Notes: generated by a model from the letters alone, not told the origin. Positions 3,105 through 57,905 are shown, numbered from the whole stretch's first letter. The stretch is 61,297 bases of DNA, filler included, from 6 parts of 6 records of this genome joined end to end with filler, not necessarily neighbours in it; one strand, 5' to 3'. A program made the numbers and translations.

Positions 3105-3482
3105 GTTTTATGTTTGAGAGATCAGGAGGGGGAAGAGCGTTGCTAATTGGGAGCTTAACTCTGCCGCAACCGCTTTGATACCAAAAAAACACTTGGCCTG
3201 ATCAGCGCAAAATAAGACAACGTCGAAAAAAAGACTGTAAGCTAGCCCGGATTTCTCATCAGTTCAGGCAGTCCCAGGGTCAAGGTCTTTGGTAGTAAAT
3301 CATAGTAGGCTATCGGAGTCTACACTTACCTTTTACTGCTAAAATACTGAAGAGGATGGTGCCGTATGGACTGACCTTCGGTGAGCATTTAGATAATTGT
3401 ATGTTTCATTAACCTTAACTGTATAAGTTTGAAGTCACTAATTCTCAAAAAATGATAAAATGCTCATGAGAAATTCGTGCTA

Positions 3483-3525
3483 GCCGTTGCCTTCCCGTGC
3501 ATTGCTATACAGAGACGGCAACGGC
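3483..3525 (-). terminator. probable terminator hairpin after the persulfide reductase gene
   Basis: Inverted repeat GCCGTTGCC...GGCAACGGC just downstream of the 3549 stop. Confidence 0.4.
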
Positions 3526-3548
3526 ATAAAGAATGAAGAAGGTTCTCT

Positions 3549-5240
3549 TTATTTTTTACGCGGATATGGCCAAGCCATAATCCCGCCTTCCATCACTTTT
3601 ACATTGGTGTAGCCATGGGCCTGGAGTACTGTAGCGGCCTCGTATCCTCTGAGTGATATTTTGCAGAAACAGATTATTTCCTGATCCTTGTCTTTCGGCA
3701 GCTCATCCATTTTACTGCGAAGCGCTCCGATGGGAAGAAGCTTTTCACCGATTCCAAGGTGCATCTCTTCGTATTCTTGCGGGCTTCTGCCATCCAGATA
3801 AAATGGCTGTTCATTGCTCTGTATTTTTTCCCATACATCGACAACAGAAATGCCCTCCATTCTCCCTTTCAGTTTATTTTGCATGACATGGGCAGAGGCG
3901 ATAAAGTGATCGATGGCCAGTGAAAATGACGGCGCGTAGGGGAGGTCAGCATTTATAAGATCTTCAACCGTTAGCTTACCTTTAATGGCCATGGCTGCCA
4001 TGGCAACCTGCTTGCTGACGTCTGCAGAGCCAACACATTGGTAACCAAGCACCCGCTGATCCTTAGTACTTACCAAGAGTTTTGATATAATGAGCCTGGC
4101 CCCCATGAAACCGGGAATGTCTGGACTGGCGTTGACCACGACTTCATATTCTTTCAGACCCTGGTGTTCGGCCATTTTTTCAGAAAGACCTGTGGAGCCC
4201 GCAGTAAAGTTAAAGGCTTTACATATACCTGTCCGGTAGGTGCCGGGAAAGGTGACACTGTTGCCCAGCATTGCATTTTCACCTGCCACCCGTCCTTCAA
4301 GGTTTGCCAAGTCACCCATCGGAGCAAAGGCATTTCCTGTGCCGCTTAAATTGTTGATTTCCACACAGTCACCGGCAGCATAGATATGTGGGTCGGAGGT
4401 TTGCATGAACTCATCTACGGTGATACCTCCGAATTTACCTGTGTCAAGCCCTGATTCAGCAGCTATCTTAACGTTTGGCCGTACTCCAATGGCCATGATA
4501 GCAACCTCGCAATCAAGGGTGGTGCCATCAGCCAGAGTTACCCCTGTGAGTTTGCCGTCAGTACCGTTAAATTCCTTTAATCCTGAGCTGGTTATAACCT
4601 GAACCCCTTGGGATTTTATGTGATTTTCAACCAGTTTGGCCATCTGCCAGTCAAGGAAAGGGAGGATTTGGTCAAGCATTTCAACCATGGTTACTTCCAT
4701 TCCAGAACTGCGAAGAGCTTCACAGGTCTCTACACCTATCAAGCCGCCACCAATAATAACCGCCTTTTTCACCTTCTTTTCATCACGGATTTTACGGAGA
4801 TAGTCACTGTCCTGCATGCTCAACAGGGTGGTTATGCCATCCAGATCAATATTTGGGATAGGCGGCATGTTGGGATTGGCGCCCGTTGCAATGATGAGCT
4901 TATCATAAGGCAGTGTCTTTTCTTCACCGTTGGCCACCTCTTTGCAAACAACTTTCTTTTCCTGGCGGTCAATGGAAATAACTTCTGTTTGGGTATGGGC
5001 GGTAATACCTTTTGCCTTGGCAAAAAAAGTAGCATCACGGACAACACCGGTAGGGGTACAGAGCAGCATGTTTCGGTCATCGAATACACCGCCTACATAA
5101 TATGGGTAGCCGCAGGCAGCCATGGAAAGATCAGGGTCTTTCTGGACAATGGTGATGTTTGCAAATTCATCAAGACGTCTGGCCTTCGCTGCGGCTTTCG
5201 CTCCTGCGGCAGAGCCACCTATGACAACAATGTTTTTCAT
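3549..5240 (-). CDS. CoA-disulfide/persulfide reductase with C-terminal rhodanese domain (Npsr/CoADR-RHD type)
   Basis: GGSAAG FAD motif, SMAACGYPY redox Cys, GGGLIG NAD motif, IYAAGD, YAPSFS; rhodanese domain with CKISLRG and EGGIMAW. Confidence 0.9.
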   Translation of the reverse strand: MKNIVVIGGSAAGAKAAAKARRLDEFANITIVQKDPDLSMAACGYPYYVGGVFDDRNMLLCTPTGVVRDATFFAKAKGITAHTQTEVISIDRQEKKVVCKEVANGEEKTLPYDKLIIATGANPNMPPIPNIDLDGITTLLSMQDSDYLRKIRDEKKVKKAVIIGGGLIGVETCEALRSSGMEVTMVEMLDQILPFLDWQMAKLVENHIKSQGVQVITSSGLKEFNGTDGKLTGVTLADGTTLDCEVAIMAIGVRPNVKIAAESGLDTGKFGGITVDEFMQTSDPHIYAAGDCVEINNLSGTGNAFAPMGDLANLEGRVAGENAMLGNSVTFPGTYRTGICKAFNFTAGSTGLSEKMAEHQGLKEYEVVVNASPDIPGFMGARLIISKLLVSTKDQRVLGYQCVGSADVSKQVAMAAMAIKGKLTVEDLINADLPYAPSFSLAIDHFIASAHVMQNKLKGRMEGISVVDVWEKIQSNEQPFYLDGRSPQEYEEMHLGIGEKLLPIGALRSKMDELPKDKDQEIICFCKISLRGYEAATVLQAHGYTNVKVMEGGIMAWPYPRKK

Positions 5241-22957: not shown

Positions 22958-23057
22958 NNNNNNNNNNNNNNNNNNNNNNNNNNNNNNNNNNNNNNNNNNN
23001 NTTAATTAATTAANNNNNNNNNNNNNNNNNNNNNNNNNNNNNNNNNNNNNNNNNNNN
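22958..23057. other. artificial contig linker
   Basis: N-run around TTAATTAATTAA (stops in all six frames). Confidence 0.98.
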
Positions 23058-28538: not shown

Positions 28539-28638
28539 NNNNNNNNNNNNNNNNNNNNNNNNNNNNNNNNNNNNNNNNNNNNTTAATTAATTAANNNNNN
28601 NNNNNNNNNNNNNNNNNNNNNNNNNNNNNNNNNNNNNN
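28539..28638. other. artificial contig linker
   Basis: N-run with TTAATTAATTAA. Confidence 0.98.
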
Positions 28639-34659: not shown

Positions 34660-34759
34660 NNNNNNNNNNNNNNNNNNNNNNNNNNNNNNNNNNNNNNNNN
34701 NNNTTAATTAATTAANNNNNNNNNNNNNNNNNNNNNNNNNNNNNNNNNNNNNNNNNNNN
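34660..34759. other. artificial contig linker
   Basis: N-run with TTAATTAATTAA. Confidence 0.98.
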
Positions 34760-49149: not shown

Positions 49150-49249
49150 NNNNNNNNNNNNNNNNNNNNNNNNNNNNNNNNNNNNNNNNNNNNTTAATTA
49201 ATTAANNNNNNNNNNNNNNNNNNNNNNNNNNNNNNNNNNNNNNNNNNNN
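49150..49249. other. artificial contig linker
   Basis: N-run with TTAATTAATTAA. Confidence 0.98.
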
Positions 49250-49671
49250 TGACCCGAATTGAGAGGATTATAGCGGTTCTCATCCAGATCCCGATCCATG
49301 TTCTTCTTGTAATCCATGAGCAGAACCATGGCGACCAGGTGCATCCCCCGGGAGAGGATCCTTTCGTCGCCGCCGCTGAAGTGGCAAAAGGGAATAAGGG
49401 GCCGCATGATATCCATATGCTCATTGGGCTGGTCGTTGTATACATCGTTGACCGGGCTGTCCTTGCTCAACAGAAAGAGGGACAGATTGGTAAAGCCGTC
49501 CTGAACGGGATTGTCCGTGGAGGCGATATGGGGAAGCATGCCTATAAGGCGGCAGAGACGGTGTTCCAGAATGATCTGTTTCTTCATTGCGAACTGAGGC
49601 ATCCCCATCAGGACCTCATCAACCAGAGACTCCCATATTTCAGGGGAATTAATAAATCGAGCTTCGTACAC
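49250..49671 (-). CDS. hypothetical protein (3' truncated)
   Basis: AGGAGAGG SD before GTG 49671; frame open to the contig end. Confidence 0.6.
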
Positions 49672-49896
49672 GTGATACCTCTCCTTTTCTCCAGATAAGC
49701 AGATTTTCACATCGAATATTGCTTTTGTATATCATCCAAAAGGATGATATTGATCATCATGGCCCTTTTTACGGCGTTTTTGACCTCATTTACGTCCTTT
49801 TTTATCTATAATAACTCTAATAATTGAGAAACCAGATCTCAAGCCGATTATTAACATATTTCTGTTAACGCCCGAGTGTCTGTAGGAGAGCCAAGG

Positions 49897-50376
49897 ATGA
49901 AGATAACCGTAATCAGCGTTGGAAAGCTGAAAGAGAAATACTGGAGGGGCGCCGTCGAGGAGTATGCGAAGAGGCTCTCCCGCTACGGAACCCTGAACCT
50001 GGTCGAAGTGGCCGACGAGAAATGCCCGGAAAACGCAAGCGAAGAGGACAGGAACATTGTCCGCAGAAAGGAGGGGGAAAGGATCGCGGCCAGGATCCCG
50101 GAAGGGGCCTTTCTGGTCACACTTGAGATAGGAGGGAAGGAGATGGGCTCAGAAGGCTTCGCCGCTTTTCTGGACGGCCTCCCCCACAAGGGACACTCCC
50201 ATGCCGTATTCGTCATCGGAGGCTCCCTGGGTCTGGAGCCGGGGCTCTGCCGAAAAAGCGGGCTCTCCCTCTCCTTCGGCCCCATGACCTTTCCCCATCA
50301 GATGATGAAGGCGATGCTGCTCGAACAGATCTATCGGGCCTTCCGGATCAACAGGAACGAGCCCTATCATAAATAA
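49897..50376 (+). CDS. rlmH: 23S rRNA pseudouridine-1915 N3-methyltransferase
   Basis: VGKLKEKY, FVIGGSLG, MTFPHQ, EQIYRA, PYHK. Confidence 0.96.
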   Translation: MKITVISVGKLKEKYWRGAVEEYAKRLSRYGTLNLVEVADEKCPENASEEDRNIVRRKEGERIAARIPEGAFLVTLEIGGKEMGSEGFAAFLDGLPHKGHSHAVFVIGGSLGLEPGLCRKSGLSLSFGPMTFPHQMMKAMLLEQIYRAFRINRNEPYHK

Positions 50377-50447
50377 GCGGGTTCTCACTCCCCAATGGGA
50401 AGAGGGTTCTTGAAGGAGAAGTCGCCGGATGTCAGGTACAGGACCGG

Positions 50448-51527
50448 TCAGAACAGGGATGTGATAGCGGGATTCCCCTTCAGTCCCGCAAGAAGGCGGG
50501 GGCTCTGCCCCTCGCCGTCCTTCGTATCCGGATTGGAGCCTCCCCCCAGAAGCAGACGGACGGCGTCGGACCGCTCCGCCTCCACCGCATAGTGAAGGGC
50601 CGTGCGGCCCCTTTCGTCCCGCACTTCGTCCCGGGCTCCCGCCCGGGCAAGCAGATTCAGGATCTCCCAGTTGCCCAGTCTGGCGGCGATGAGAAGCGGG
50701 GGATATCCCCTGGGATCGCTTGCCGAGAGATCCGCCCCCTGCTCCAGAAGCATGCGGCAGATATAGAACTGACCATTGAAAACGGCCTCCACGAGATCCC
50801 CTCCCGCCTGCCTGACGGGGGCGAAGCCCACGGTCAGATGGGCGCCGATCACCCGGTAACGCCACCGGGGCGCTTCTGCCCGGACCGCCGTTTTTTCCAG
50901 GGTGACCAGGGCGCAGCGCTTCTCATAGGGGCTGAGGACATGCCCTTTGAGTATCAGATCTTCCACGACCGGCTGCCCCGGTTTCGGGCTGTAGGAGTAG
51001 ACGGTTTTGGCGGTGTTGCCGTTCCGAAAGAGGTCGATATGGATCTTCTTCGTATACCCGCCCGGGTATTCGGCACTCTCTGATCGATCCATGGAATAGG
51101 TCATGCGATAGCTGTCGTCCCCCCTCTGGAAGATCTGCCCCCCCGCCGTGACGCGGTCAACCGTCTTGATACCGAAGCGGATCAGCTGGGAGTGCCATTC
51201 GGGATGAAGCTCCCAGAGTTCCGCCGGACTCTGATCGCTCAGCAGAACCGCCTCGGGACTGGCATAAAGGAGTTTGTCTTCGATAAGGTCCAGGATCTGC
51301 CACTGCCAGATCCGGCTGCCCCCTTTTCCGGACGAAACGGTACCGTAGGCGAACTCGCCTTTCGCCGTCCAGCCCAGCACATAGAGAGACATGCGATCGA
51401 AATCAAAGGCCTCCAGCCTCACAGGCCCCTTCCAGTTCCCCGCGCACAAAGGAAACGCCACCGCGAGAAAGGTGATCGTCAGGAGATAGAGAAAAGGGCC
51501 GGCGGGCTGTCTTGAACTTCTGAACAT
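50448..51527 (-). CDS. secreted protein with C-terminal ankyrin repeats
   Basis: Signal peptide; GYPPLLIAA, GRTALHYAV, GQSP repeats. Confidence 0.8.
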   Translation of the reverse strand: MFRSSRQPAGPFLYLLTITFLAVAFPLCAGNWKGPVRLEAFDFDRMSLYVLGWTAKGEFAYGTVSSGKGGSRIWQWQILDLIEDKLLYASPEAVLLSDQSPAELWELHPEWHSQLIRFGIKTVDRVTAGGQIFQRGDDSYRMTYSMDRSESAEYPGGYTKKIHIDLFRNGNTAKTVYSYSPKPGQPVVEDLILKGHVLSPYEKRCALVTLEKTAVRAEAPRWRYRVIGAHLTVGFAPVRQAGGDLVEAVFNGQFYICRMLLEQGADLSASDPRGYPPLLIAARLGNWEILNLLARAGARDEVRDERGRTALHYAVEAERSDAVRLLLGGGSNPDTKDGEGQSPRLLAGLKGNPAITSLF

Positions 51528-51583
51528 GTATTCCTAATATAGCAAAAGTATTATAAAAAAACAGCTCTATCGAGGTAAAGCCA

Positions 51584-52309
51584 ATGAATATGAACAGCAT
51601 TACAACCCTGGCCACTCTTGCGGTCATCGGGCTCAGTTACGTCCTTCCCCTTTTTCAGGAGCAGATCCGCTCGGTCGGATTCTTCGCCCTTTCCGGAGCC
51701 GTCACGAACTGGCTGGCCATCCACATGTTATTTGAAAGGGTGCCCGGCCTCTACGGATCGGGAGTCATCCCCCTCCATTTCGAGGATTTCAAGAAGGGGA
51801 TCCGGGACCTGATCATGAATCAGTTCTTCACTTTGGAGAACGTCTCCCGTCTGATGAAGGGGGAAACGGGCATTCTGACGGACCATCTGGATCTGAGCAA
51901 AGCGGCAGACGCGGTAAACTACGACAGGATCTTCGACGGACTGAGCGAAACGATCCTCGCCTCCTCCCTGGGGGGGATGCTCGGGATGTTCGGAGGAGCC
52001 TCGGTCATAGAGGGGTTCCGCGCCCCTTTCAAGGAGAAGACCAGAGACATCATCGTCGCCGAAGCTCAGAGCCCCGAATTCCTGAACAGCGTGTCCTCAT
52101 CCATGGGCGGCAATACGGACAAGGCGTCGGAGGATATTATCGAAAAGGTGGGAGCCATCGTCCAGCAGAGACTGGATGAACTCACGCCGCAGATGGTCAA
52201 AGAGATCATTCAGGCCATGATACGCAAACATCTTGGCTGGCTGGTGCTCTGGGGAGGGGTCTTCGGAGGCCTTATAGGACTGGTGATGAGCCTTATCCCC
52301 ATGATCTGA
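51584..52309 (+). CDS. DUF445 family membrane protein
   Basis: GAVTNWLAIHMLF..PGLYGSG; C-terminal HLGWLVLWGGVFGGLIG. Confidence 0.88.
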   Translation: MNMNSITTLATLAVIGLSYVLPLFQEQIRSVGFFALSGAVTNWLAIHMLFERVPGLYGSGVIPLHFEDFKKGIRDLIMNQFFTLENVSRLMKGETGILTDHLDLSKAADAVNYDRIFDGLSETILASSLGGMLGMFGGASVIEGFRAPFKEKTRDIIVAEAQSPEFLNSVSSSMGGNTDKASEDIIEKVGAIVQQRLDELTPQMVKEIIQAMIRKHLGWLVLWGGVFGGLIGLVMSLIPMI

Positions 52310-52451
52310 TCTCTGCGGACGGCTCGGTTCTGAGACGATATCACAACCGGGCCGCGGCGCTTCGTTCCTGCGGATCGCCTTTAAATATATAGGCCGGTAT
52401 TGCAATTTTTCCTTTACAAATAAGAATTTGGATGCGAGAATAATTTCGGGC

Positions 52452-52626
52452 AAAAAAAAAGCCCCTGAAGAAAAGGAGGAAACTTCAGGGACCCAAAAGC
52501 AAAATGGAAAAAAAGGTAATCAGTCTTTTCTTCCCATGAAGCCAGTTAACAACATGACTTCAACTATTCAAACTTCCGTTGAAGAAAAGGAGGAAAACTT
52601 CAACAGAAGCGCGTGACTTACATCAC
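52452..52626 (-). ncRNA. candidate small regulatory RNA (~175 nt) with two anti-SD (CCUCCU) loops
   Basis: Sigma70 promoter upstream, five hairpins, GC-rich terminal stem followed by T9, no credible ORF on this strand. Confidence 0.75.
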
Positions 52627-52632
52627 ATTTAA

Positions 52633-52661
52633 AATATAGTAATCTCATAATTAAAAGTCAA
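52633..52661 (-). promoter_or_regulatory. sigma70 promoter of the candidate sRNA
   Basis: TTGACT (52661-52656) - 17 nt - TATATT (52638-52633). Confidence 0.8.
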
Positions 52662-52754
52662 GCAAACTGTTTGACTTTTCTTTATGTGTCCTCAGCAAAA
52701 AGGCAAGTAACACATACCGCTTTGCTGATAGGGCCATACTAAATAGGCAAAGTT

Positions 52755-52787
52755 AAGATTTCGTGAAGATTTCATAAAGACTCTTCA
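52755..52787. promoter_or_regulatory. three tandem 11-bp direct repeats, candidate OmpR/PhoB-family binding site
   Basis: AAGATTTCGTG AAGATTTCATA AAGACTCTTCA. Confidence 0.5.
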
Positions 52788-52818
52788 TAGATCCTATCAA
52801 TATTTCAAGAATAAACGC

Positions 52819-54297
52819 TTACTTCCCTTTCTCCCTAGGGAATGCGGGGAAGCGGATCCGCATCAAAGCCCCGCCCTCAGCTCCTTCGCGGGCCTCCAGA
52901 CGCCCTCCCTGGTTGGCGATGAGAAGGCGGCTGATGGCCAGTCCCAGGCCGCTGCCCTCGCTGTTCCTGGACTTGTCCAGTTTGTAAAAACGGTCGAACA
53001 CCCTCTCCCTTTCTTCCGGGGGTATGCCGGGCCCCGTATCCTCCACCTCCAGAAACAGCCCCTCTTCATCGGCGTACTGGCGGATGGTGACCCGCCCTCC
53101 CGGAGGGGTGAATTTAAGAGCGTTTGCCAGAAGGTTCTTCAGGACCTGCCGGGTTTTGTTTCTGTCTCCCCGAAAGAGCGCTTCCCCTCCCAGGGAAAGG
53201 TCGAGGGCGATCCCCTTCCGTTCCGTAAGAACCGAGAAATCGCCGGCGATAAGCTCCGCCAGCTCCCGGAGAGAGAACTCCCGTTCCTCCGTATGTACCT
53301 GTCGGGACTCCTCGGCGGCGAGGGTTTGAAGGTCCCGTATCAGCCCGGCGAGCTGCTCGCTCTGACGGTAGAGGACTTCCATGCGCTTCCGGTCTGCCTC
53401 GTAGACGCCGTCCATGATCATCTCCAGGTTCCCCATGATCAGACTGACCGGGGTTCTCAGCTCATGGGCCGTATCCGATATAATCTGGCGTTTCCAGTTC
53501 TCCGAGGCCTCCAGAGAGGCGGCCATCTCGTTGAATCCCTCGGTGAGAAGGGTCAGATCGTCCTGTATGCCCGGAGTTGTACTGCCCGTCTCTATCCTAT
53601 AGGAGTACTCCCCTTCGCTGATGGTCATCACCCCTTTGTGAAGGCTCTTCAGGGGCCTCAGGGCCCGCCGGAGGAGGAGAGAGCCCAGAAGCATCGCCAG
53701 TAGTGCCGAAAGGAGGGATGAGATGAGTACGCCGCTGATGATGGGATAATGCTGAGGCTTGCCGTCCGGTCCTTCCTGAGGTCCCGTATACTCGCCGGCC
53801 AGCACATACCCGTCCACATGCCCGTCCCTGTAGAACGGAGCTCCCAGTTCAAGGATCTCCGGGGAGAGGCTCTTCAGCCTGCGGCCGGAGCTGTCGCGAA
53901 ACGTTCCCTGCAGGACGGCCCCGTGCTTGTCGCTGACGACGATGGGGATGGTCCTGTCCATGCCGGGCTCGGGGGGAGGAAGGGCATCGGTCCTGAGAGA
54001 GGGGGCGGACATCCTGCCCATCCTGCCCATCCCCATCCGGCCCGCTCCCTGCGCATTGCGGCCCTGCATACTTTCGTCATGCTTCATGGAGTGCAGGATC
54101 TGCTCGAGGCGCCCTTCCGAGGCGGCCATGCTGAGGGTGCGGGCGAAGGTGACAGCCGTATTCCTGTCCCGCTGCAGGGCGAGCCCCCGGAAGCGGCTGA
54201 CCGTCAGGGTTCCCACCAGCAGGATGGTCACCAGGGTACTGAAGAGGATGGAAAAGACCATGATGCCCACGAGCCGGGCAGTGAGTGAGATCTTCAT
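52819..54297 (-). CDS. membrane sensor histidine kinase (BaeS-like, HAMP)
   Basis: Two TM segments, Met/Gly-rich periplasmic loop, AHELRTP, NLLANA, DTGPG, GSGLGL. Confidence 0.93.
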   Translation of the reverse strand: MKISLTARLVGIMVFSILFSTLVTILLVGTLTVSRFRGLALQRDRNTAVTFARTLSMAASEGRLEQILHSMKHDESMQGRNAQGAGRMGMGRMGRMSAPSLRTDALPPPEPGMDRTIPIVVSDKHGAVLQGTFRDSSGRRLKSLSPEILELGAPFYRDGHVDGYVLAGEYTGPQEGPDGKPQHYPIISGVLISSLLSALLAMLLGSLLLRRALRPLKSLHKGVMTISEGEYSYRIETGSTTPGIQDDLTLLTEGFNEMAASLEASENWKRQIISDTAHELRTPVSLIMGNLEMIMDGVYEADRKRMEVLYRQSEQLAGLIRDLQTLAAEESRQVHTEEREFSLRELAELIAGDFSVLTERKGIALDLSLGGEALFRGDRNKTRQVLKNLLANALKFTPPGGRVTIRQYADEEGLFLEVEDTGPGIPPEERERVFDRFYKLDKSRNSEGSGLGLAISRLLIANQGGRLEAREGAEGGALMRIRFPAFPREKGK

Positions 54298-54413
54298 TCG
54301 CCTTCCCGCATCCTGTACCCCACCCCCCAGACCGTCTGGATATATTCGGGATGGGCCGGATCGGTCTCTATCAGCTTCCGGATATTCTTGATATGGACGT
54401 CGATGGAACGCTC
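54294..54413 (-). CDS. OmpR-family response regulator, C-terminal fragment
   Basis: ERSIDVHIKNIRK...IQTVWGVGYR; ATGA overlap with the kinase. Confidence 0.92.
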   Translation of the reverse strand, partial: ERSIDVHIKNIRKLIETDPAHPEYIQTVWGVGYRMREGE

Positions 54414-54513
54414 NNNNNNNNNNNNNNNNNNNNNNNNNNNNNNNNNNNNNNNNNNNNTTAATTAATTAANNNNNNNNNNNNNNNNNNNNNNNNNNNNNNN
54501 NNNNNNNNNNNNN
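54414..54513. other. artificial contig linker
   Basis: N-run with TTAATTAATTAA. Confidence 0.98.
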
Positions 54514-55458: not shown

Positions 55459-55770
55459 TTAAGAGACATTCTGATATCTTTTAATCTGGTTTAACTCAGC
55501 AGTTAAGCTTTCGATCAAGAATTGCTGTTGTATGATCGTGATTCTGGTTTCTGTATTAAGATCTATTACGGGAGACTTAGTCTTTCTACTATAAACATAA
55601 TAAGCTGTATCATCAGAAAAGAATCTACGTCGCCAGTAATATAATAGATTTGGATGAATATTATATTTTAATGCTATCTTCTTAATATCACCATACTTTG
55701 TATTATTGTATGATTCTAGAACGATATCTCTCTTCTGTAATGGGGTGTATCTATTGTTTTTCTTTTTCAT
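55459..55770 (-). CDS. HTH protein resembling IS3/IS66 OrfA (HTH_Tnp_1), with C-terminal coiled coil
   Basis: RYT..QKRDIV...IALKYNIHPNLLYYWRRRF; GAGGAG SD. Confidence 0.6.
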   Translation of the reverse strand: MKKKNNRYTPLQKRDIVLESYNNTKYGDIKKIALKYNIHPNLLYYWRRRFFSDDTAYYVYSRKTKSPVIDLNTETRITIIQQQFLIESLTAELNQIKRYQNVS

Positions 55771-55816
55771 ACTTTATATCTCCTCTTGAATAATATAATT
55801 TTTAGTACTCTTTATA

Positions 55817-56602
55817 CTAAAGAAGAGTACCGGTCATAATCGCCATCAATTCAACCTGGTTTAGGAAGTTCTTATATAAATCAGTTGGGATTTCGTTTTG
55901 GATTCGTATGAGAGTAAGTAAAGGAACGAGATTTCTAATCAGAGTTTCTTCTGTTTGATACAAGAATAAACAGTTTAGAAGACTTCTATCCTGTGAATTA
56001 TTGATTTGACAGATACGATATTTGCGAAGTCTGAACTCGCTTCTTATAATATCATCTGTTGCTTTCGGTTTAATGATTCCTTCATCCAAGTATTTTATAC
56101 TTTTGTTGTATAAACAAAACTCAGATTTTTTAATTTGTTTTACTATCTCTTCCCTTGAGTAGTAAGTGTTCTTTTCTTTCCGAAAAACAGCAGGGATTAA
56201 CGCTTTATCGTTAATCCTTCTTTTAGGAACATCAAATGCAATTTCAATTTCATAGAGGTTCAATATATGAACAATATCGAAATAATTTTTCAGAGTATTA
56301 AGATGAAACTCTGAGAAGAATCCTTCATTCAGCAGTAGAAACACTGCACTTATGATGTCCTGTATAACAAGATTATTAGGATTCAAGTGTTGATTGTGGA
56401 TGTGAATCTGATAAAAATAATATTTAGTTTCATTTTTATCTATAAATAACTTATTAACTGTTACCGACTTCATCTTTGACCTTTCGAACTTTGGGTTCAC
56501 AAAACTTCGGTGTACTAACAATGTGACCTTATCAATCGATTTGTTGGGCTGCTGAAACGTTCGGTTAAATGACCATGCTTTGGGGATAAATTTTTTTTCC
56601 AT
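55817..56602 (-). CDS. putative Rep_trans/gpII-like replication initiator or MOB_T-like relaxase
   Basis: EIEIAFD, NTYYS, FCLYNKS, IRSEFRL follow the order of the RxDxAxD / TxYxG / xYxK / RxExR motifs; AAGGAG SD. Confidence 0.55.
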   Translation of the reverse strand: MEKKFIPKAWSFNRTFQQPNKSIDKVTLLVHRSFVNPKFERSKMKSVTVNKLFIDKNETKYYFYQIHIHNQHLNPNNLVIQDIISAVFLLLNEGFFSEFHLNTLKNYFDIVHILNLYEIEIAFDVPKRRINDKALIPAVFRKEKNTYYSREEIVKQIKKSEFCLYNKSIKYLDEGIIKPKATDDIIRSEFRLRKYRICQINNSQDRSLLNCLFLYQTEETLIRNLVPLLTLIRIQNEIPTDLYKNFLNQVELMAIMTGTLL

Positions 56603-56786
56603 TTATCTCTCCTTTCTAAAATAATTTATTTCAATGTAGGAGAGTTTTTATTTTTTAATATTGTGTGGCCATGATAGGAACTATGTCCCATATGGCATTG
56701 ATCAATGACATCGGATATGAATGACATATGCATATAAAAAAATAGAACTTCAGACATTCCAACAGAAATGTTGGAGGTGACTTAAT

Positions 56787-57905
56787 ATGTCAAAGAAAAA
56801 ACCGTATTGCCTTTTTCAAAAGAAGCTAGCCAATGGACAGAAAATCTACTACTACACGGCCTATGATACGCAGGGAAAGCGAAGACAGGTATCAACTGGA
56901 TGTAAAGATCAGTTAGATGCAATACAGATATGCCTTAAAAGGCTAGAGGAAGGGAAACTAATTCCGGGAGATAGGATTGTCTTTAAAAATTATGTCAAAA
57001 ACTGGTTTACTGAGGACTGCCCTTATTATACTCCCCGGATTGAAAGAGGGAACAGCTATTCAAAAAGCTGTATAGAGCGAAATCAGAAGATCCTAGAAAT
57101 GCATATTCTTCCTGTTTTTGGAGAAATGAGAATGGATCGAATCCAAACAGGAGATGTAGAAGACTGGCTCTTAAGATTCAAAAAATCCGGTTACGCTCAT
57201 AACTCAATAAATCAGTTTAGGGGGATCTTGAGACTTATCTTCAATGAGGCGATCCGTTGCGGCATTATTAGCCGGAATCCAGTACTGAATGTTCTACCTT
57301 ATGCCAGAAACGCAAAAGAAAGAGGGATTTTAACCCATGAGGAATGCCAGACTCTTTTTGACAGAAACCGCATTGATAAGATTTGGAAAGGTCGGGAGCT
57401 GCACTACTTAATCAATTACACAGCGTACCTTACTGGAATGCGTATGGGGGAAGTTCTCGCTTTAACAGAAGATGATATACATAATAACTATATACAGATT
57501 CGGCATTCCTGGGATCGGAAATACGGCCTAAAATCAACTAAGAGCGGGAAAGAGCGGTATGCCCCTGTTCCTGTAAACCTAGTAAAACTTCTTCATGAAT
57601 ATGTAGAGAATGTACAGGGGCGATTTCTTTTCATGGCAAAACATCCTTTTAAGCCTGTAGACCATAAATCAGTTCAGAATCATTTTGCATTTGCCCTGGA
57701 AGCGATAGGAATAGATGATAGTCAGCGACGGGAGAGGGCCATATCTTTTCACAGCTGGCGTCATACGGCAAATACCAGGATGAAGGAAGCAGGAGTTCCA
57801 GAGGCTGTTGTGCGAGCTGTTATTGGTCATTCTTCAGCAGAGGTATCGGAAGTTTATACTCATATTGATCCTAGGAAAATTGACTTAAATTGGGAAGTTG
57901 TTTAG
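56787..57905 (+). CDS. int: tyrosine integrase
   Basis: N-terminal arm-binding and SAM-like domains; TGMRMGE, TKS, HSWRH, IGHSS, VYTH catalytic residues. Confidence 0.95.
   Translation: MSKKKPYCLFQKKLANGQKIYYYTAYDTQGKRRQVSTGCKDQLDAIQICLKRLEEGKLIPGDRIVFKNYVKNWFTEDCPYYTPRIERGNSYSKSCIERNQKILEMHILPVFGEMRMDRIQTGDVEDWLLRFKKSGYAHNSINQFRGILRLIFNEAIRCGIISRNPVLNVLPYARNAKERGILTHEECQTLFDRNRIDKIWKGRELHYLINYTAYLTGMRMGEVLALTEDDIHNNYIQIRHSWDRKYGLKSTKSGKERYAPVPVNLVKLLHEYVENVQGRFLFMAKHPFKPVDHKSVQNHFAFALEAIGIDDSQRRERAISFHSWRHTANTRMKEAGVPEAVVRAVIGHSSAEVSEVYTHIDPRKIDLNWEVV

Follow-up and report, generated by a model that had tools for sequence, protein, structure and literature searches.

On the minus strand of a 61,297-nt stretch of DNA (hereafter the window), positions 52452..52626 hold an unannotated unit that a reading made from the sequence alone had taken for a small RNA (sRNA) gene with two nearly identical loops complementary to the Shine-Dalgarno (SD) sequence. 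This locus raises two questions: is the unit a gene of its own, transcribed into a structured RNA, and if so, what do its anti-SD loops do? We found that it is a real, expressed and independently transcribed non-coding sRNA gene; there is good support for the gene itself, for its ends and strand, and for its structure and conservation. As for its function, we consider it rather probable that this stand-alone gene of an Oceanispirochaeta-like lineage encodes a non-coding, trans-acting sRNA of ~170-175 nt which behaves as a repressor.

Minus-strand transcription and conserved structure

The sRNA gene (52452..52626, minus strand, 175 nt) extends from its +1, a G at 52626, to the end of a T9 terminator tail and includes five hairpins. 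Its promoter P1 (52633..52661, minus strand, 10/12 matches) consists of a -35 box TTGACT(T) at 52661-52656, a 17-nt spacer and a -10 box TATATT at 52638-52633. No other sigma-70-type match in the scanned 2 kb is as good as P1; the promoter scan returned 6 promoter-like sites in this region for 1.0 expected. The transcript opens with a 14-nt GNRA hairpin, GUGAU-GUAA-GUCAC (52613..52626, minus strand), which is lineage-specific and lies outside the conserved core. Next comes hairpin H2 (52572..52610, minus strand), where a 13-bp stem (52610-52598 / 52584-52572) closes anti-SD loop 1, UUUUCCUCCUUUU, at 52597-52585. The arms of H3 (52537..52562, minus strand), TGAAGTCA / TGGCTTCA at 52562-52555 / 52544-52537, form a variable stem below an invariant loop core UUGUUAA. 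Those of H4 (52506..52534, minus strand) are GGAAGAAAAG / CTTTTTTTCC at 52534-52525 / 52515-52506; the fold given for the conserved hairpin is GGAAGAAAAG / CUUUUUUUCC with loop ACUGAUUAC, and here the sequence itself is conserved. Finally, the GC-rich terminator hairpin H5 (52459..52494, minus strand; stem 52494-52483 / 52470-52459) carries anti-SD loop 2, UUUCCUCCUUUU, at 52482-52471 and is followed by the T9 run (minus strand, U tail 52458-52452). Promoter, hairpins, loops, terminator and T9 run had all been placed correctly by the sequence-only reading.

The motif UUUCCUCCUUUU is common to the H2 and H5 loops, and 17 nt are repeated exactly, in direct orientation, between the two loop regions, at a distance of 114 nt. 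In the whole 61-kb window, TTCCTCCTTT occurs twice (0.30 expected), both times in these loop regions. The minus-strand RNA folds at -59.3 kcal/mol (z = -5.5), a value reached by none of 200 shuffles, and the plus-strand RNA at -37.8 kcal/mol (z = -2.2).

Expression was observed in a metatranscriptomic RNA run (X1), in which 30% of the sampled words of a 601-nt stretch were present. One 218-nt contig of this run (depth figure 99.9) matches 52457-52626 with 0 differences. It has two loose ends, neither of them encoded by the genome: a T24 run beyond 52457 and, beyond 52626, CC followed by what we take to be the Illumina adapter. Such a layout is, by our inference, what first-strand synthesis primed with oligo-dT on a minus-strand RNA would leave, the C's being non-templated additions at the RNA 5′ end. 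The loose ends therefore point to a minus-strand RNA whose 5′ end is G52626, which is 7 nt after the -10 box and exactly the +1 that had been proposed for an unannotated non-coding RNA on this strand. At the other extremity, the observed RNA ends at 52457, after four U's of the terminator tail, with an A-tail that is either natural or derived from library preparation. Sequence, conservation and this one contig show that transcription of the sRNA begins at G52626, under a near-consensus sigma-70 promoter, and ends at an intrinsic terminator. The ~175-nt RNA that had been suggested as a check has its counterpart in a contig spanning 52457-52626, of a polarity deduced from the loose ends. The X1 contig leaves the sRNA flanks uncovered, and we drew no conclusion from these flanks. 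A third run, whose kind is unrecorded, covers 52564-52900 with three differences and runs upstream through the promoter, as genomic DNA would.

To examine the structure, homologues were collected with a covariance model built here (R1), BLASTN being used alongside. The window sRNA scores 180.9 bits with R1. The set of 12 homologues is made of the window and 11 genomes (G001, G003-G012), and each of the 12 folds alone into the same four hairpins, H2 to H5. Alignment with MAFFT (A1) misaligned the variable stems, and RNAalifold on A1 dropped H2, which led to realignment with the covariance model (A2); A1 alone already contained compensatory changes in H3 and H5. In A2, 89.6% of the cells are paired and double-sided changes affect 19 of the 45 pairs (54 cells). 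The covariation score is 0.356 versus 0.186 in shuffles, none of 500 shuffles reaches any of five measures, and slid controls give at most 61% paired cells and at most 11 pairs. Double changes concern 7/13 pairs in the H2 stem, 9/11 in H3 and 3/11 in H5. In H4, 98.3% of the cells are paired, 7/10 pairs never vary and two positions are mostly G-U. The homologue search with covariation that had been advised yielded compensatory changes, and covariation shows four conserved hairpins, of which two display the same pyrimidine loop UUUCCUCCUUUU, one of these two being the terminator hairpin.

The same alignment bears on the strand. Among the 540 stem cells, there are 77 G-U pairs versus 15 A-C pairs, and the minimum free energy is lower for the sense strand in 11/12 homologues. 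The excess of G-U over A-C and the better fold of the sense strand therefore indicate that selection acted on the minus-strand RNA.

Distribution and genomic setting

A single strong full-length copy of the sRNA is present in 11 of the 38 genomes of the family to which G001 belongs (148-176 bits with R1, in agreement with BLASTN); the order-level search took in the same 38 genomes. In a class sample of 151 genomes, scores above 148 bits were obtained in family members only. One weak R1 match each (33.5-46.5 bits) was found in 23 other genomes, and among those displayed, these matches are driven by the shared terminator module. The gene represents a sRNA family of its own, which in the searches made is limited to a single family of spirochaetes. 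The sRNA reading had been said to fail if the unit proved to be a dispersed repeat. This possibility was ruled out by the single full-length copy per genome, exemplified by the 5-Mb relative G001; the terminator-loop module alone recurs. A scan of metagenomes with a degenerate H4 pattern gave 4 loci, 0 of which were matched by R1.

The sRNA is 75-94% identical in nucleotides across homologues, in contrast to the intergenic DNA on either side, which has diverged. All 12 retain TTGACTT and TATATTT at a spacing of 17 nt. The H2 loop is kept as UUUUCC(C)UCCUUUU in 12/12, loop 1 reading CCCUCC in G004, G009, G010 and G012, and the H5 loop is invariant in 12/12. The conservation expected of the two anti-SD loops was thus verified in all 12 homologues. 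The H3 loop core TTGTTAA (UUGUUAA) is also invariant in 12/12, as is most of H4. The 5′ GNRA hairpin did not hold as a family feature: it is found in the window and in G001 alone (with a GAAA loop in the latter), the 5′ region being variable in the other 10.

The position of the locus is fixed in 11/11 relatives, with a histidine kinase gene upstream (43-72% amino acid identity) and a convergent DUF445 gene downstream (74-87%). The window itself is a chain of contigs joined by five N44-TTAATTAATTAA-N44 linkers (22958-23057, 28539-28638, 34660-34759, 49150-49249 and 54414-54513), so that genes across a linker are not genome neighbours; the contig bearing the sRNA gene is 49250-54413. On this contig, the kinase gene (52819..54297, minus strand; HAMP-HisKA-HATPase_c, BaeS-like) lies directly upstream of the sRNA gene. 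Its best NCBIfam match is BaeS/SmeS, below the cutoff. It is preceded by the C-terminal fragment (last 39 codons) of an OmpR-family response regulator gene (54294..54413, minus strand), whose stop overlaps the kinase ATG and whose remainder is cut by the linker. The DUF445 gene (51584..52309, plus strand) is the conserved convergent neighbour downstream.

The closest public locus, L001, belongs to an Oceanispirochaeta sp. metagenome-assembled genome (G001) and has a kinase 73% identical to that of the window, in line with the spirochaete origin presumed earlier. Its gene order is AcrB-type RND pump, response regulator, kinase, sRNA and convergent DUF445, with a full-length response regulator (Response_reg + Trans_reg_C) at 3297-4004. 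In L001 (194-5470), the two-component genes beside the sRNA directly follow the AcrB/AcrD/AcrF-type RND efflux pump gene, an arrangement consistent with a BaeSR/SmeSR-like regulon for efflux and envelope stress. The contig that follows in the window has a transposase-type helix-turn-helix gene and a phage-integrase-family gene (55459-57905), which are unrelated to the sRNA and suggest a mobile element.

Instead of an independent gene, could the unit be the structured 3′ untranslated region and terminator belonging to the response-regulator/kinase operon, or arise from it by processing? In all 11 relatives, the sRNA shares the strand of the kinase gene and lies 158 nt beyond its stop, and the upstream direct-repeat promoter described below could yield read-through transcripts. 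Against this stand the near-consensus promoter with its fixed 17-nt spacer in 12/12 homologues, the 5′ end of the RNA contig, marked by non-templated C's and adapter 7 nt after the -10 box, and a hairpin between the sRNA and the kinase gene. We consider this explanation very improbable.

Anti-SD loops, candidate targets and known RNA families

The 3′ end of the 16S rRNA, identified in G001 with RF00177, is GGAUCACCUCCUUUC. Both loops of the sRNA contain the 8-nt core CCUCCUUU, which is also the core of the lineage's own 16S 3′ tail. The exposed loops would pair with the purine-rich, AAAGGAGGAAA-like SD regions of a set of mRNAs, compete with or exclude the 30S subunit and so repress translation initiation. 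We favour such an anti-SD repressor mechanism because known repressors of initiation are built in the same way, with the anti-SD loop exposed, here in two copies of which one is in the terminator loop, on stems free to vary.

Comparison with described RNAs was made first through Rfam 15, which at gathering score matched nothing, either across the window or in 14 related loci; the outcome of this check, which had also been recommended, supports the absence of the RNA from Rfam. The best matches below threshold were to LhrC (RF00616), with 25.3 bits (52455-52550) and 18.4 bits (52569-52648) for a gathering score of 110. In Listeria monocytogenes, the CU-rich sites of LhrC pair with the lapB ribosome-binding site and block translation, as demonstrated experimentally, and LhrC is controlled by the LisRK two-component system, according to PMC4132741. 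CU-rich sites are redundant in both RNAs, being present in a stem-loop as well as in the loop of the terminator; in LhrC they pair with the ribosome-binding site (PMC4132741). Both also have a tie to an envelope-type two-component system, LisRK in one case and the adjacent BaeSR-like pair in the other. Membership of LhrC was nevertheless rejected: the score is below 110 bits, and the UCCC motifs of loop A, single-stranded segment and loop of the terminator are not found, the window sRNA having CCUCC in its loops and no UCCC-bearing single-stranded linker. The present RNA further differs from LhrC by its motif (CCUCC in a U-rich loop versus UCCC), its size and fold (175 nt and four conserved hairpins versus ~100 nt and two hairpins), its copy number (one versus five), its phylum (Spirochaetota versus Listeria) and its conserved opposite-strand promoter.

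The cuckoo/CcsR (RSs0680) RNAs of Alphaproteobacteria carry an anti-SD motif in each hairpin loop, the family being defined (PMC4615179) by 2 to 4 adjacent hairpins whose loops each contain CCUCCUCCC. Modular hairpins with covarying, variable stems and a fixed, common anti-SD-like loop are shared with the sRNA studied here. Membership was rejected, as CCUCCUCCC is absent (the motif here is UUUCCUCCUUUU) and the anti-SD hairpins are separated by H3 and H4. In addition, and unlike in cuckoo/CcsR, the terminator supplies one of the two motif loops; the RNA also comes from another phylum and has no Rfam match at threshold.

In 6C-type sRNAs, exposed C-rich loops also pair with SD sequences. The same property is reported for RNAIII, RsaE, SprD and FsrA (PMC4132741) and for the C-rich loop motif of RNAIII (PMC4615179). 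From RsaE/RoxS, RNAIII and 6C-type RNAs of Gram-positive bacteria, the present sRNA is distinguished by a U-flanked CCUCC in place of a C-run, by its architecture and phylum and by the lack of an Rfam match. A full-text literature search on anti-SD sRNAs in spirochetes, in which Oceanispirochaeta was not searched by name, returned nothing on this RNA.

Targets were sought by pattern and duplex scans, with the closest relative G001 serving for genome-wide patterns. Several results, of this search and of the preceding analyses, weigh against the repressor reading. No target of the sRNA was established by these scans in G001 and in the window. The exact 12-nt loop complement AAAAGGAGGAAA has 7 sites in G001, 3 of which are themselves sRNA genes, and none of the other 4 is at the ribosome-binding site of a long open reading frame (ORF). 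The 10-mer AAGGAGGAAA followed by ATG within 1-8 nt occurs 8 times in G001 (2 for the reversed control), with 3 plausible gene starts among the 8. The best site of the window, at the start of a PBP_like_2 solute-binding protein gene (18193, -17.5 kcal/mol), is on another contig, and was discarded as a target since 14 homologous loci, whether from sRNA carriers or not, do not keep this ribosome-binding site; these homologues are ~41-51% identical and their orthology is uncertain. An anti-SD mechanism does not account for the invariance of the H3 loop or for the sequence conservation of H4, two elements that may be additional seeds or sites for a protein. Covariation counts were taken from A2, an alignment fitted to the covariance model. 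Expression is documented by one assembled contig of one run; strictly speaking, neither ends nor strand can be read from contigs, and a second run of the same study (X2) gave no contig on the window. Lastly, the antisense transcript and the direct-repeat promoter discussed below are predicted from sequence.

Full-length complements being rare and not located at gene starts, real targets of the proposed repressor would therefore rest on shorter seeds. Short seeds are the usual basis of sRNA targeting. Candidate leads among the AAGGAGGAAA+ATG sites of G001 are genes for Hsp20, a SAF-domain protein and a 188-aa protein, another ATG being probably internal to a kinase gene. The start regions of the neighbouring DUF445 and kinase genes pair weakly with the sRNA loops (-6 to -12 kcal/mol).

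The same results can be read in another way, with an RNA that mainly binds a protein or the ribosome and not mRNAs, and whose loops, H3 and H4 are recognition sites for a protein such as a pyrimidine-binding protein or a chaperone. This would account for loops that are invariant over 12-13 nt, U-rich flanks included, for the 7/10 H4 pairs without any variation and for a search that found no convincing conserved mRNA target. The loop core is nonetheless that of the 16S anti-SD, the same loop is found in the terminators of unrelated sRNA-like loci, which a shared SD target explains simply, and no candidate protein was identified. We judge this explanation improbable, and retain pairing with SD regions as the preferred one.

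Flanking elements and related anti-SD loci

Just past the sRNA terminator, the opposite strand has a promoter-like element directed into the sRNA gene (52413..52441, plus strand): TTTACA, 17 nt, TG-n-GAGAAT, with 9/12 matches and the TG present. Its hexamers are kept, with a variable spacer, in 10/12 homologues; it is missing in L041 and L045. At the other side of the gene, a hairpin of 12 pairs (52653..52679) overlaps the -35 box of P1; read on the plus strand, it gives way to a run rich in T. Hairpin and T-rich run are found on the antisense strand in most homologues, weakly by eye in L041 and L043; on the sense strand, the hairpin is mostly without a T-run. This hairpin is terminator-like for an antisense RNA; alternatively, it could end transcripts of the kinase operon. 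Together, plus-strand promoter and terminator-like hairpin predict a ~240-nt antisense RNA covering the whole sRNA.

Overlapping pairs of this type have been described. In Campylobacter jejuni (CJnc190/CJnc180, PMC8687705), a fully overlapping cis-encoded RNA is the antagonist, and SdsR/RyeA of E. coli has the same arrangement (PMC6610125). The locus resembles them in that its conserved opposite-strand promoter and terminator would give an antisense partner; these two signals for an opposite, overlapping transcript are present at the level of sequence. It differs from them in that the antisense RNA is here a prediction, and there is no sequence relationship.

Could the functional unit then be the sense/antisense pair, with a ~240-nt plus-strand RNA fully complementary to the sRNA and effects through mutual antagonism, RNase III decay or transcriptional interference? 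In a variant of this explanation, the plus-strand RNA, which carries two strong SD-like sites, could itself be the effector. The TTTACA, 17 nt, TG-n-GAGAAT element conserved in 10/12 homologues, the antisense-strand hairpin and T-run just beyond the sRNA promoter in most of them and the precedents of CJnc180/CJnc190 (PMC8687705) and SdsR/RyeA (PMC6610125) argue for it. Conversely, no RNA of antisense polarity was seen, the sole RNA contig has minus-strand polarity and the exact ends of the sRNA (contigs, it is true, do not allow absence of a plus-strand RNA to be claimed), the stems favour the minus strand (G-U 77 vs A-C 15), the promoter-like box is missing in L041 and L045 and no plus-strand ORF is conserved. 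On balance we regard the pair as an unlikely functional unit, though one that can coexist with the trans-acting repressor which we prefer.

As an alternative, the sequence-only reading had raised a type I antitoxin acting in trans. The ORF search bears on this possibility, taken here as a type I toxin-antitoxin locus in which the sRNA is the antitoxin and a small toxic peptide is encoded on the other strand. Convergent, overlapping promoters and two strong SD-like sequences on the plus strand are what such a system would display. A conserved ORF was sought on both strands of the 12 homologues and none was found. The only recurrent one, M/L-EKK-V/L-I... (11-27 aa), is absent in 3/12, shifts in start codon and length, has no SD at working distance and is not hydrophobic. 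With a plus strand devoid of conserved ORF in 12 homologues, the antitoxin proposal was abandoned as extremely improbable.

Upstream of P1, between the kinase stop and this promoter, a tandem direct repeat GAAATCTTCAC / GAAATCTTAAC (52736..52773, minus strand; repeat family D4) has an 11-nt period (52773-52752) and is followed 10 nt downstream by TAGTAT. A TTCAC-N6-CTTGAC-like box is found in 10/12 homologues at a fixed 10-11 nt before a TAnnAT-like hexamer, its distance to the -35 box of P1 being variable (71-93 nt). Elsewhere in the window, the direct-repeat box gave one match with 3 mismatches, which is chance level. Spacing of this kind between repeat and hexamer is the geometry of OmpR/PhoB-activated promoters. 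It suggests that the adjacent two-component system may drive a second start, P2, reading into the sRNA. Between the direct-repeat box and P1, the window also has an imperfect inverted repeat (52692-52728; 17-nt arms, 76% complementary), whose sequence is not conserved in relatives.

Judging from the conserved flanks, the output of the sRNA is probably set by three inputs: P1, the direct-repeat promoter and a cis-encoded antisense antagonist. The direct-repeat promoter, located downstream of the BaeSR-like two-component operon, would be driven by the response regulator, and the transcript from the conserved opposite-strand promoter would antagonise the sRNA.

Other loci carry related anti-SD loops. 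A second sRNA-like family was seen in 9 of the same genomes (loci L033, L053, L054, L055, L057, L058, L059, L060 and L062; also L077-L079), with two tandem copies in L060. Its members combine a T-rich stretch whose last letters are TGTAACC, UUCUCCU in an internal stretch and the terminator CCCCCGGG-UUUCCUCCUUUU-CCCGGGGG, which a U tail follows; the family has in common with the studied sRNA only the anti-SD terminator loop, and has no Rfam match. A third type of sRNA-like locus (L035 of G001; L056 and L081 of G005) has the terminator CAGCCCUYAAGG-UUUUCCUCCUUUCC-CUURAGGGCUG, with a GTAACC...TGTATAACCGTTT stretch upstream. Other Spirochaetia (L093 of G105, L098 of G043, L099 of G080 and L100 of G177) have a unit of ~110-125 nt, preceded by a TTGACA-17-TATAnT promoter in 3 of the 4 loci, L100 showing none. 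Its two hairpin loops, GUUUCACCUCCUUUCC and GUUUCUACCUCCUUUCC, are closer still to the 16S 3′ tail, and this unit, without a match in Rfam, may be a separate double anti-SD sRNA family. In these genomes, the anti-SD seed in a terminator loop appears to be a reusable module. This reuse of the loop in other sRNA-like terminators, the opposite-strand promoter and terminator and the upstream direct repeat are new with respect to the sequence-only reading.

To our knowledge, hardly any regulatory RNA has been characterised in spirochaetes other than Borrelia, Leptospira and Treponema. The locus offers mapped ends, a structure supported by covariation, a covariance model, 12 orthologues and a fixed address beside a two-component system. 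Anti-SD loops have also been adopted in Staphylococcus and in actinobacteria. The present RNA extends anti-SD loops on variable stems, known in Listeria (PMC4132741) and in alphaproteobacteria (PMC4615179), to another phylum. Activity of the conserved antisense promoter, if there is any, would add this locus to the natural cases of an anti-sRNA encoded in cis.

A bolder reading, to which we give limited credence, would combine these elements. Free-living Spirochaetia would possess a modular mimic of the 16S tail, the same loop, GUUUCCUCCUUUUC or a CACCUCCUUUC variant, being placed in the terminator hairpins of several unrelated sRNA scaffolds and the module being duplicated in the sRNA studied here; the locus would integrate a constitutive promoter, a promoter driven by the neighbouring BaeSR-like system for envelope and efflux and a conserved cis-antisense antagonist that buffers a potentially toxic competitor for SD sites. 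If this were true, envelope stress would be tied to the translation of strong-SD mRNAs across the whole lineage.

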